23,636 bases of DNA from a virus. Positions 21,001 through 23,636 of this stretch are shown here, one piece after another; within the stretch, counting starts at the first letter, position 1, and the number at the start of each line of letters is the position of its first letter. The stretch lies in UHGV virus genome UHGV-0079480; one strand, written 5' to 3'. A program made the position numbers.

Positions 21001-23636
21001 GTTATCGTGGTGTTGATGTTCACTTCACACCTCTCTGTTTGTTGATAAGCTCAATATCCTGCTGGCAGCTGGCGCAAGCTCGGCATCCACGAACAGCCAG
21101 GCGTCGCCGCTCATCTATCGGATCGCCACACTCGCAACAATGAGTAGCAGATGGGGCATTACTATAGGATTTGTATTTTTGCAGGGAGAGATTGCGCTGC
21201 AATTCTTCGATTTCAGCGGCATTGTCGATGATATCTGCCATTTTCCTTTCCTTCAGGCATGAAAAAAGGAGCCGAAGCTCCTTTGGTTTTAGAATTCGAA
21301 TTGCCTTGCCCGCAGGCTTTTCAGCATTGGTCTGGCCCGCTGGACAACGAAACTTGACTGGTCAAGCTGTGCCGCCTCCCGCAGTAGTGCTTCCTTGTTC
21401 TTCGTCACCATGTAGATAGTCTCAAACGCAATGTCATACAGCTTGTTCGTGTATGATGAGTTCAGCTCTTTCATGATCGGATACAGGTGTTTGCTGAGGT
21501 CCTGGGCTTTTTCCATCCAGAGTTGCATGTAGCAGAGGAGGATGATTTCCTCGGCTGTGAATTGCTGCTCAGTTTGTACTGGCTGAATGTTGCGAAGTTT
21601 CTTTTCGCACTCGATGAAGTAGCGGCGTATCTGGCGGCCTTTTTCGTTACGTTCAACCATCGCCAGTTCTTTGGCTGTGTCGAGAGTTAGGTGGTATTCC
21701 TTGCGGCGGCGGCCTGGAGTTTTCGCCAAATTTGGCGAAAATAGAATGTAGTCTAAATTTTCTACGAATCCATACTCGTTTAGCCTAGCCCGTATCCAGT
21801 TAGAAAAATCTTTACCTACCTCTAAAAATCCATGTAAATCACGCGCATTCACCAGAAGCGTAGGTTCATTTGAGATTGTACCTTCAAACACAGGGATGAG
21901 TTGAGTGGTCATGATGACCTCCTTTGGCTTTTTTCGAGAAATGCCACCACAAATGTGGTGCCGGGAGGCTCGAAACGGCCCAAAAGATACCGCGGACTTA
22001 TTCCCCTTGCGGGTGTTGTATTCGTCGCCCTCCCGACATTGATCGGGGATGTGACCGCACACTGTGCTATCACTGAATAACAGGCATAAAAAATCCAACA
22101 CTGACGGGGTTGGTTTAATCCGCTTTTGGGAGGTTTTCGAGGCCTCGGCACGGAGTATAGTCAGTATTGGACGCAGTCGTCAACCATCGCCGTTTCTTTG
22201 GCTGTGTCGAGGGTGAGGTGGTATTCCTTGCGGTTGTGACCGCCTCTACCTTTTCTTTGCTCCCCCGTTTTGGGGAGCAAAATAAAATCTTGGTTTTCTG
22301 TAAATTCATACTCGGAGATGCGGATTCGTATCCACGTGGAAAAGTCTTTTCCGACTTCGAGAAACGCGTGTAAATCACGGGCATTACAGAACAGGGTAGT
22401 TTCGTTGGCGATAGTGCCGTTGAATACGGGGATGAGTTGATTAGCCATAATTATGACTCCTGACGTTTTAGTATTGACTGCCACCTTAGTGGGGTGGCGG
22501 GCTTCAACTACCGCGTCAGACGGCGGAGCGTATTTCCCGAAAGGGTATTGTATTAGGCTCTCTCGACCCGCCATTGATATGGCGATACCTGTAAACAGGC
22601 ATAAAAAAGCCGCAAAGCTATCGGGGGCGGTTGACCGCTGACGTTGTAGTGCGGTCAGTATGCGATAGCTCTGGCGGATTTGTCAAATCGTGCAGTAACA
22701 TCCTTTTCTTCCTTGCCATTTCTCAATGATGACAAAGGGTGGATTCGGATTGGTATTGGGACAAAAGTGAGACACACAAAGCTTTGCATCGGCTTACAAA
22801 GCTTTGCATGTTTTTCAATGTTGGGACGTGTGAGCGCAGAAATGACGGGCTATCTAATTGATTTTAAACGATACGTAACCAACTTTAAAATCTTTGCACG
22901 CCAGTTCGCAGGTTTTACAGCCAGTACAGCGGCTGGAATCGATAAAAAATCCATATTGTGTGGTCATGGGCTACTCCTTAAACCTTTTCGATCTGGACAA
23001 GATTGCTGTGCGACGGGTTTCCCTTTGCCAGCGGTGAAGGGCGGTGAGAGGTCAGAATATTGATACTGCCGCCGTGATCGACCCGGTCACCAAACATATC
23101 CGCTTTAAGCCACGCACCTTGCCCGATGGCGGTAACGCCAGGCAGAATACGCGGAGTCACTTTTGCGGCAATCAGCATTTCTCCATTATTGTTAAATACC
23201 CGCACGGTATCGCCATGACGGATACCGCGTGCCTGAGCATCAATGGGGTTGATCCACACCTCTTGTGGGCAGGCCTGCTGTAACACATCAATATTGCCGT
23301 AGCTGGAGTGGGTACGCGCTTTGTAGTGGAAGCCCGTTAACTGCAGTGGATAGGTTTTCCGCAGGGGATCGTCCCAGCCATCAAAACCTGGGGTATACGC
23401 AGGAAGGGGATGAATAATTTCATCTTTTTTCAATTCCCAGGTATCTGCAATCTTCGCCAGTCGTTCAGAATAAATTTCGATTTTCCCCGAAGGTGTTTTC
23501 AATGGGTTTGCCTGTGGATCTTCACGGAATGCGCGGAAAGCGACGTAGTGTTCTTCCGGGCATTTTTTCTTAAAGATCCCGGTCGTTTTCATCTCCTCGT
23601 AGTCGGGCATCTCAGGGTTACGTTCCTTCGTTTTCG

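Follow-up and report, generated by a model that had tools for sequence, protein, structure and literature searches.

The repeated 14-mer near the right end of a ynfG-integrated Stx1a prophage is most likely an ordinary component of a P22-type Int/Xis recombination site

The excisionases (Xis) of the phages lambda, Gifsy-1 and Pukovnik and the Apl protein of phage 186 bind tandem repeats that lie one helical turn apart, and the att DNA is bent (PMC7498355, PMC2603039). For the Gifsy-1 Xis and 186 Apl sites, cooperative binding of the directionality factor has been described, and P22 Xis bends its site as well (PMC7498355, PMC2603039). Phage phiPOC-J13 is known to integrate site-specifically in ynfG/S1742 (PMC4193171). 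In the full texts covered by our literature search, no description of the P22 arm-type or Xis sites at the level of sequence was found. A Gifsy-1 Xis paper contains no site sequences for comparison (PMC2603039).

The window analysed here is a stretch of 23,636 nucleotides of the virus genome UHGV-0079480. Judged by sequence comparison, its end is the attR of a phiPOC-J13-like Stx1a prophage in ynfG; the right end of POCJ13 and the window are 99.5% identical. Comparison of attL, attR and the reconstructed attB yielded CTTTAAA (22883-22889) as the segment common to attL and attR. When the host flanks were joined over one copy of this core, the resulting 187 bp were 100% identical to the intact ynfG-ynfF region of the listed E.coli genomes, and at least 80% of this reconstructed attB was present in 5236 genomes. 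The dyad of attP reads CAAC-TTTAAA-GTTG, i.e. inverted core-type sites surround the crossover segment. Between the core and the proximal arm site, there is a putative IHF-like site. The features at the junction are as follows:

22880-22889, no strand assigned: core of attR with the crossover segment, corresponding to the left half of the dyad in attP (from the comparison of attL, attR and reconstructed attB).
22854-22967, minus strand: 5' remnant of ynfG, which the insertion interrupts and joins to phage sequence (sequence comparison).
22851-22863, minus strand: putative IHF-like site, AATCAATTAGATA in the sense of int, with one mismatch to WATCAANNNNTTR (found by eye).

Integration in ynfG is common to a group of Stx1a phages to which phiPOC-J13 and 75/02 Stx belong, together with prophages in 51 complete E.coli genomes, including O104:H4 strains. 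The int gene lies outside the window, next to the other end of the element, and was read from the near-identical prophage of E.coli 05-3629 and from phage POCJ13. Int is a tyrosine integrase of the P22 family, presumably heterobivalent, and shares 71-73% identity with the proteins of ST64T, UAB_Phi20 and SfII across 97% of its length. The xis gene is an ORF of 123 aa that overlaps the start of int and is intact and identical in the three relatives checked (POCJ13, 05-3629 and 75/02 Stx). It matches HTH_17 above threshold and TIGR01764 just under the cut-off (28.5 versus 28.8 bits). The protein is 69-77% identical to the Xis proteins of P22-like and SfII-type phages; a PDB sequence search with it gave no meaningful match.

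Tandem pairs of a TGGGACA/TGAGACA motif are present on both arms of the site, the int-proximal pair inside the 3' end of int. On the int-distal arm, two features carry the motif:

22756-22774, minus strand: putative Int arm-type sites TTGGGACA (22756-22763) and GTGAGACA (22767-22774), which form the distal pair, with 11-bp spacing (motif conservation).
22822-22837, minus strand: proximal putative Int arm-type site or sites, TGGGACGTGTGAGCGC (identical 16-mer in relatives).

The motifs are nearly invariant among 51 unique relatives, and the GTCyCA-N5-GTCyCA pair occupies a fixed column in 83 of the 88 unique relatives. The 16-mer TGGGACGTGTGAGCGC is identical in the P arms of P22-like phages, SfII, ES18 and Gifsy-2 and was found in at least 120 IMG/VR stretches; among the matches listed, most are P arms of the same layout. 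Those IMG/VR loci that were found via the Int protein mostly end 3 bases after int and hence show the int-proximal arm only. HK542 and GF-2, whose Int proteins are more distant, have other motifs on both arms. The N-terminus of the HK542-type Int is unlike the P22 type, and the arm motifs are replaced where the Int N-terminus differs. By their sequence pattern, the TGGGACA-type motifs at 22756-22774, at 22822-22837 and in the 3' end of int thus behave like Int arm-type sites and are putatively assigned as such.

Between these sites lies the direct repeat to which the initial annotation had drawn attention. The exact ACAAAGCTTTGCAT pair is present at 22776-22789 and 22796-22809, 20 bp apart from start to start, and the perfect palindrome CAAAGCTTTG occurs inside both copies, as had been described. 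The 10-bp palindrome alone is not significant (2 matches with at most one mismatch versus 1.1 expected; 29 of 100 shuffles reach 2). The exact duplication of a 14-mer within 40 bp is significant, being observed once and in none of 20 shuffles. Because the junction is fixed at the shared CTTTAAA core, the 14-mers can be placed 74-113 bp inside the prophage end, which confirms their location just within the element. The earlier statement that the repeat does not match the LexA box (CTGT-N8-ACAG) also holds for 22776-22809. A third copy of ACAAAGCTTTGCAT, with up to two mismatches allowed, was sought in the window, the left end of POCJ13 and the left 39 kb of the prophage in 05-3629; none was found. 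The initial annotation had counted the lack of further copies in the element against its own proposal, and such a lack is what we observe; a motif at a single location does not, however, refute a role inside attP.

The 14-mers fill a gap of fixed length between the proximal site and the distal pair of the int-distal arm. The P arm is collinear with the arms of P22-like phages and SfII, both repeats included, and 83 of the 88 unique relatives have the same layout, in which the proximal site is followed by 12 nt, then by 14 + 6 + 14 nt and finally by the distal pair. The features in the gap are:

22776-22789, minus strand: first 14-mer copy ACAAAGCTTTGCAT, ATGCAAAGCTTTGT in the sense of int, containing unit 3 together with the first part of unit 4; homologous to the second P-arm repeat of P22/SfII.
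22790-22799, minus strand: degenerate middle unit, TTGTAAGCCG in the sense of int (TTGCAAACCG in P22-like phages; alignment columns 20 and 24).
22796-22809, minus strand: second 14-mer copy ACAAAGCTTTGCAT, in the sense of int containing unit 1 together with the first part of unit 2 (homology to the P arm of P22/SfII).
22811-22815, minus strand: conserved A-tract, AAAAA in the sense of int, in 10-bp phase with the array (alignment of 51 unique relatives).

The segment consists of four tandem 10-bp units with the pattern T-N3-A(A), of which the 14-mers are units 1 and 3. Among the 51 unique segments, T is found at columns 10, 20, 30 and 40 in 46-50 (column 20: 46) and A at columns 14, 24 and 34 in 47-48 (column 24: 47). 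The autocorrelation of conservation in these segments is 0.74 at lag 10 versus 0.23 or less at other lags. Columns 5 and 7 of the A-tract are invariant in the 51 unique relatives, and A makes up at least 90% of columns 4 and 6. The 14-mer sequence itself varies freely among phages that share the Int arm motif. The inner segment stays together with int-xis next to varied genes: gtrA in P22, SfII and L, a tail gene in ES18, sseI in Gifsy-2 and antA here. As far as the compared sequences reach, the P22-type P arm is built of Int arm sites at fixed positions and a swappable inner segment that retains only its 10-bp T/A phasing. On the same comparison, both the perfect palindrome and the exact duplication are specific to this lineage.

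The closest match among known systems is the attP of P22 (and of SfII, ST64T, L and ES18), which is served by homologous Int (71-73%) and Xis proteins. P22-type attP sites likewise have a proximal GCGCTCACACGTCCCA followed, after 12 nt, by two 14-nt repeats with 20-bp spacing and a distal TGTCCCA pair, as well as a TGTCCCA pair inside the 3' end of int, and the P22-like repeats ATGCAAAGCCTTGC and ATGCAAAGATTTGT are homologous to the 14-mers of this phage. In P22, the core and attB lie at the 3' end of the thrW tRNA gene, whereas here the core is the 7-bp CTTTAAA in the coding sequence of ynfG and the gene is disrupted. Moreover, the two repeats have here become identical and perfectly palindromic, the neighbours are antA-type antirepressors instead of gtrABC, and the phage is a short-tailed Stx1a phage (Sepvirinae). 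Presumably, by elimination, the Xis site of P22 lies in the homologous inner segment.

The X1-X1.5-X2 array of lambda resembles the locus in that two good direct repeats with 20-bp spacing frame a degenerate site (our middle unit being the analogue of X1.5), in its position beside Int arm-type sites on the int-distal arm and in the binding of one protomer per turn with bending of the arm for excision, which is here proposed. In contrast to lambda, whose sequence is not homologous and whose Xis has 72 aa rather than 123 aa, the array is here enclosed by the arm-type sites, and a Fis site is not evident. The tripartite site of Gifsy-1 Xis and the operators of 186 Apl share with it tandem imperfect direct repeats at one-turn spacing (PMC2603039, PMC7498355), but involve other proteins and motifs, and Apl also regulates promoters.

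Taken together, the ACAAAGCTTTGCAT pair is, by its sequence context, most likely an ordinary component of a P22-type Int/Xis recombination site and not a separate element. Within this site we favour, with some reservation, the reading that the 14-mers are part of an array that Xis, the directionality factor, binds and bends; that Xis is the binder is what we infer. On induction, the P22-like Xis would bind the array cooperatively through its HTH_17 winged-helix N-terminus, one protomer per helical turn. The Xis-bound array would bend the P arm such that Int on the distal arm sites could bridge to the core, and this bridging would drive excision by attL x attR recombination and disfavour reintegration.

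Comparisons between relatives bear on this reading in both directions. Relative L096 has the same Int arm motif and a Xis of 47% identity with a different recognition helix, and its inner segment is a different one with GGYMAC repeats. Between ES18 and P22/L, the N-terminal domain of Xis and the arm sites are identical, and the inner segments have only the T-N3-AA phasing in common. Since ES18 and P22/L share the Xis but not the segment, recognition by Xis would be loose and the exact 14-mer dispensable. Similarly, L138 and L196 have nearly the same Xis helix and different segment classes that keep only the periodic T/A pattern. As a counterpoint to binding by Xis, phased A-tracts alone could be intrinsically bent DNA or the site of a host protein.

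The alternative that survives best is that the stem-loop formed by the two 14-mers, and not the direct repeat, is the functional feature, i.e. an RNA hairpin in the sense of int. We regard this as rather unlikely; it may coexist with Xis binding. The feature concerned is:

22772-22811, minus strand: 17-bp stem-loop formed by the two 14-mers, in the sense of int (RNA fold; flagged as terminator-like).

In the excised phage, the hairpin could be a terminator or a sib-like retroregulator some 160 nt downstream of the int stop codon. In the prophage, its position downstream of ynfF-ynfG' might allow it to block the read-through of host transcription into the antA operon. The fold is stronger in the int-sense (17-bp stem, -23.1 kcal/mol, z -5.35) than on the plus strand (-18.3, z -1.28), and the terminator scan flags it as terminator-like. 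The depositors of SfII and phage L annotated a rho-independent terminator on the homologous hairpin; these annotations are on conflicting strands, that of SfII in the int-sense and that of L on the opposite one. A match of the hairpin to mir-19 in Rfam was below threshold (26 versus 50 bits) and was taken as chance.

In relatives of the ATGCAAAG class, the complementarity of the arms is kept better than the identity of the direct repeats. Paired changes (C:G to T:A, T:A to C:G, and C:G to G:C or A:T) preserve the pairing, and direct-repeat identity drops to 6-9 of 14 positions. In a permutation test with 5000 trials, pairing with the own arm exceeded that with permuted arms (1/5000). The class had been chosen by folding energy, which biases the test; choosing it by the left arm only gave the same result, from few lineages. 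This complementarity counts against an array for Xis, because a head-to-tail Xis filament leaves it unexplained. However, the covariation comes from about 10 lineages. About 60% of the unique relatives have the hairpin, and about 40% of those with the same arm layout lack it (MFE -2 to -11); in this phage, the U-run, UUUU, is short and begins about 8 nt past the stem. Nor is the strand bias consistent: the mean energy is -19.2 in the int-sense versus -20.3 in the antisense, with 57 G.U versus 34 A.C pairs. Moreover, the potential to form a hairpin comes free, since the tandem units contain the self-complementary TTGCAA.

The tI/sib element of lambda is similar in that a hairpin downstream of int and across attP is parted from int by integration. 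That element lies outside the arm-site region, and its processing by RNase III is proven. In the present phage, by contrast, the hairpin is embedded between arm-type sites without an adjacent U-run, and retroregulation is putative. A doubtful combination of both readings is that the Xis array of the ATGCAAAG class is dual-coded, the same 34 bp also encoding a conserved stem-loop with co-evolving arms. If this were true, the excised phage would have an att-embedded terminator or retroregulator of int, the prophage would have an insulator shielding the antirepressor operon from ynfEF(G') transcription, and integration would rewire which transcript meets the hairpin.

It is improbable that the array is intrinsically curved DNA, or bound by Fis, IHF or another nucleoid protein of the host, and gives the P arm its shape with no sequence-specific contacts by Xis. 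The conserved features are indeed mainly A-tracts and a T every 10 bp, and it is Xis, not the sequence of the segment, that ES18 and P22 have in common. Yet excision of the P22 type needs Xis on this arm (PMC7498355), and there is no other free stretch between the arm-type sites and the IHF-like site. Inspection by eye found no match to the IHF consensus within 22776-22809.

The initial annotation had proposed either arm-type recombinase sites or the operator of a dimeric repressor. The first proposal holds in so far as a role in recombination is one option, with the repeat lying in the attR arm, but the 14-mers are very unlikely to be arm-type sites for the N-terminal domain of Int. They are direct repeats in an att arm, and the 8-mer CTTTGCAT recurs in the other arm, within the last codons of int; the full 14-mer, however, is absent from the int-proximal arm. 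The TGGGACA-type motif fits far better, being present as tandem pairs on both arms, nearly invariant and swapped in HK542 and GF-2, and the 14-mer segment is wholly different in ES18 and P22/L, whose Int proteins are 97% identical. Least probable of all is an operator or upstream activating site for a dimeric phage regulator of the leftward antA operon: each copy does contain a perfect 10-bp palindrome and the 14-mers are upstream of a promoter-like site (22686-22657, minus strand) that precedes antA, but they lie about 90-150 bp upstream of it and not over it, no further copy was found in the searched parts of the prophage or near any immunity region, the dyad is perfect in this lineage only, relatives having an imperfect one or none (0-4 of 5 dyad pairs), and the segment is conserved with int-xis beside unrelated genes. 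Neither of these two readings is supported.

No new kind of system is revealed by these results. With them, the exact right boundary and the anatomy of attR are now fixed for the ynfG-integrating Stx1a phages, in which, on the evidence of sequence comparison, an Int/Xis module of the P22 type has been redirected to a protein-coding gene. The compact picture of the P22-type P arm could guide the engineering of att sites. The boundary and the attR anatomy can be used for calling prophage boundaries and for predicting whether such prophages can excise, and their excision bears on the spread of Shiga toxin genes.

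The two copies of ACAAAGCTTTGCAT described in the initial annotation are present at 22776-22789 and 22796-22809, with the perfect palindrome CAAAGCTTTG inside each copy and 20 bp between their starts. The 10-bp palindrome alone is not unusual in 23.6 kb (2 matches with 1 mismatch allowed, 1.1 expected); the close exact duplication of a 14-mer is unusual (1 within 40 bp, compared to 0 in 20 shuffles). Neither the window nor, in a near-identical prophage, the left 39 kb has a further copy of the 14-mer with up to 2 mismatches. The repeat is real and is accounted for by known biology: the 14-mers form the central segment of the P arm, the int-distal arm of attP, in the P22-type attachment site of a ynfG-targeting Stx1a prophage.

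The right end of the window carries the following genes:
22854-22967, minus strand: 5' stub of ynfG
22978-23610, minus strand: ynfF

The short-tailed Stx1a phage POCJ13 of Shigella has a right end that matches this region with 99.5% identity. In full length, the region was found in 51 complete E. coli genomes, O104:H4 strains among them. Site-specific integration of phiPOC-J13 into S1742/ynfG has been reported (PMC4193171). In the E. coli 05-3629 prophage, a truncated ynfG adjoins the integrase gene, followed by stx1a and an end matching that of the window. The core common to attL (...GATCTTTAAAGTTGTTG...) and attR (...ACCAACTTTAAAATCTT...) is CTTTAAA (window 22883-22889), and attP contains the dyad CAAC-TTTAAA-GTTG. 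The host flanks joined over one core give 187 bp with 100% identity to intact ynfG-ynfF in the listed genomes; at least 80% of this joined sequence is held by 5236 genomes. Since attL, attR and the rejoined host flanks place the junction at CTTTAAA, the repeats lie 74-113 bp inside attR, in the int-distal arm, and the proposed position near the prophage end was correct. In a comparison with window 22640-22889, 75/02 Stx and PhiR5_2 are 100% identical over the roughly 245 bp that end at the core; further inward the sequences part abruptly. The divergence point is a mosaic boundary of the att module, which reaches about 110 bp past the distal arm-type sites.

Over 97% of its length the integrase shares 71-73% identity with Int of ST64T, UAB_Phi20 (P22-like) and SfII; the identity is 69% to APSE-2 Int and 53% to HK542 Int. 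A 123-aa ORF that overlaps the int start, the same in the POCJ13, 05-3629 and 75/02 records, is 69-77% identical to the excisionase (Xis) of P22-like and SfII-type phages. At the N-terminus the ORF passes the threshold for HTH_17 and, with 28.5 bits, falls just short of the 28.8-bit cut-off of TIGR01764 'excisionase'. Judged from these protein sequences, the recombination module is of the P22 type. In prophages of the POCJ13/05-3629/75/02 type xis is under-annotated: at 11183-11557 of the 05-3629 prophage record (NZ_CP027373), which holds the intact P22-Xis-like ORF of 123 aa overlapping int, PGAP gives only a 66-bp 'incomplete helix-turn-helix' pseudogene.

On the int-sense strand the P arm of this phage reads GCGCTCACACGTCCCA-ACATTGAAAAAC-[ATGCAAAGCTTTGT]-AAGCCG-[ATGCAAAGCTTTGT]-GTGTCTCACTTTTGTCCCA, that of P22-like UAB_Phi20 ...GCGCTCACACGTCCCA-TCTTCGAAAGAC-[ATGCAAAGCCTTGC]-AAACCG-[ATGCAAAGATTTGT]-ATGTCCCATTTTTGTCCCA, and that of SfII ...[ATGTAAAGCCTTGC]-AAGCCA-[TTGTGAGGCCTTAT]-GTGTCTCAGTTTTGTCTCA. 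This phage and the P22-like phage alike have a second TGTCCCA-N4-TGTCCCA pair on the other arm, in the last int codons. By this comparison the int-distal arm is a homologue of the P arm of P22, and the repeat-bearing segment almost certainly belongs to the arm of a P22-type att site. IMG/VR contains at least 120 loci with the proximal 16-mer. Counts of the layout rest on the unique sequences among the matches listed, 83 of 88 of which show the rigid order of proximal site, 12 nt, 14 + 6 + 14 nt and distal pair. In these relatives the positions of the arm motif GTCyCA are nearly invariant and the inner segment (14 + 6 + 14 nt) is highly variable. Many relatives combine ATGCAAAGCCTTGC as the first repeat with ATGCAAAGCTTTGT as the second; two substitutions set this lineage apart from them, making the first repeat identical to the second.

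The int-proximal pair is retained with any core (thrW, a tRNA-Arg gene or ynfG), and Gifsy-2 retains the int-distal arm layout despite yet another core. Phages with a more distant Int have another motif at the same places in both arms (HK542: GGCACAA; GF-2: CGACACAA), and the N-terminal (arm-binding) sequence of HK542-type Int differs from the P22 type. Fixed positions and the change of motif with a distant Int make the TGGGACA-type motifs (22756-22774, 22822-22837) the best candidates for the Int arm-type sites. They would fit this role instead of the 14-mers, for which it had been suggested: the inner segment varies while the TGGGACA-type motifs hold.

The 8-mer CTTTGCAT (int-sense ATGCAAAG) occurs again at 10173-10180 of the 05-3629 record, within the final codons of int, flanked by the int-proximal arm pair and the core, and window 22883-22898, the core and host side (CTTTAAAATCTTTGCA), is 81% similar to the repeat unit. 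Both may be due to chance or represent weak extra sites.

The 51 unique inner segments are conserved with a strict period of 10 bp. T is found at alignment columns 10, 20, 30 and 40 in 46-50 of the 51 sequences and A at columns 14, 24 and 34 in 47-48, the A-tract at columns 4-7 shows no or almost no variation, and the information content has an autocorrelation of 0.74 at lag 10, with no more than 0.23 at any other lag. The array units in this phage are ATGCAAAGCT, TTGTAAGCCG, ATGCAAAGCT and TTGTGTGTCT. The 14-mers represent the first and third of these, and the unit that separates them is degenerate. Recombination directionality factors bind cooperatively to tandem repeats one helical turn apart and bend them strongly, examples being lambda X1-X1.5-X2, the Gifsy-1 tripartite site and Apl, and bending of its site has been reported for P22 Xis (PMC7498355; PMC2603039). 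The 14-mer array shares the arrangement of these three. Between the arm-type sites and the IHF-like site no other stretch of the arm is left for Xis:
22851-22863: IHF-like site, read by eye

The P22 Xis footprint reportedly is located on this arm between arm-type sites. We regard Xis as the most likely ligand of the array, with moderate confidence. In L096, a related sequence with the same Int arm motif, Xis is only 47% identical and has another recognition helix, and the inner segment is a different one with GGYMAC repeats; this pairing is consistent with binding of Xis. Between ES18 and P22/L the Xis N-terminal domains (58 aa) and the arm sites are identical and Int is 97% identical, yet the 34-bp inner segments are unrelated apart from the T-N3-AA 10-bp phasing. 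Likewise, the relatives L138 and L196 nearly share the Xis helix and differ in their inner segments. Since the same or nearly the same Xis DNA-binding part occurs with different inner segments, recognition by Xis must be loose if it binds the array, and neither the exact 14-mer nor its duplication or palindrome would be required. Compared with phage L, ES18 shows a cassette-like swap within attP (about 2600-2720).

The stem-loop formed by the 14-mers may add a role as terminator or insulator, which is compatible with an Xis array. The 17-bp stem has -23.1 kcal/mol (z -5.35) on the int-sense strand and folds more weakly on the plus strand (-18.3 kcal/mol, z -1.28). In the excised phage, int lies about 160 nt upstream of the stem-loop; in the prophage, the stem-loop is flanked by ynfF-ynfG' and the antA operon. 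The int-sense hairpin is terminator-like by scan, and in the deposited annotations of SfII (int-sense) and phage L (opposite strand) the homologous hairpin is given as a terminator. In ATGCAAAG-class relatives the complementarity of the arms is kept by paired changes, with direct-repeat identity down to 6-9/14, and own-arm pairing exceeds permuted pairing (1/5000 trials; the same with the class set by the left arm only), in only about 10 lineages. However, the U-run in this phage is short and begins about 8 nt past the stem, the hairpin is missing in about 40% of unique relatives, and its strand bias is not consistent among them. A function of the hairpin in its own right appears unlikely.

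A dimeric repressor operator, the other role proposed, was not borne out: the dyad is lineage-specific without a second copy in the prophage, the nearest promoter-like site (TTGACA-18-CATACT, 22686-22657, minus strand) is 90-150 bp off, and the inner segment travels with int-xis beside unrelated genes; the mismatch to the LexA box was confirmed for the 14-mer region. Further features of the window are:
10431-18857, plus strand: single ORF of 2808 aa, 8.4 kb of the window
19668-19992, minus strand: hok/sok-type toxin-antitoxin locus (Rfam sok and Hok-like ORF)
21952-22037, minus strand: Rfam sRNA-Xcc1 (RF02221) match, 74.5 bits
22488-22572, minus strand: Rfam sRNA-Xcc1 (RF02221) match, 53.0 bits, exactly the gathering score
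22686-22657, minus strand: the promoter-like site, within 22598-22690

Both sRNA-Xcc1 matches are directly upstream of AntA-domain antirepressor ORFs (22161-22451 for the match at 22488-22572, 21289-21912 for that at 21952-22037) and appear to represent a structured leader conserved among antA-type genes. After the promoter-like site come a long-range stem of 11 bp (22663-22673 paired with 22613-22623) and a T6 run (minus strand). Stem and T6 run at 22598-22690 could act in front of antA as a terminator or attenuator; alternatively, they could represent a tI-like terminator, the distance to the att core being about 215-275 bp. Many 933W-like Stx2 phages, P13374 and TL-2011c among them, have a counterpart of the 150-bp block 22543-22690, with about 84% identity, at locations other than att. 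A 70-aa ORF whose C-terminal part resembles Hok (MKQQKAMLIALIVICITVVV...) overlaps with the sok match (119.5 bits, 19818-19992).

HK542 and two IMG/VR sequences (L197, L145) carry a relic P arm of the SfII/P22 type that includes repeats and TGTCTCA sites and lies just beyond their own attP arm (in HK542, at about +222 to +270 from the int stop). The carriers have HK542-type Int (52-53% identical) with its own GGCACAA arm motif. The presence of this relic in HK542-type phages suggests a past exchange of att-int modules.
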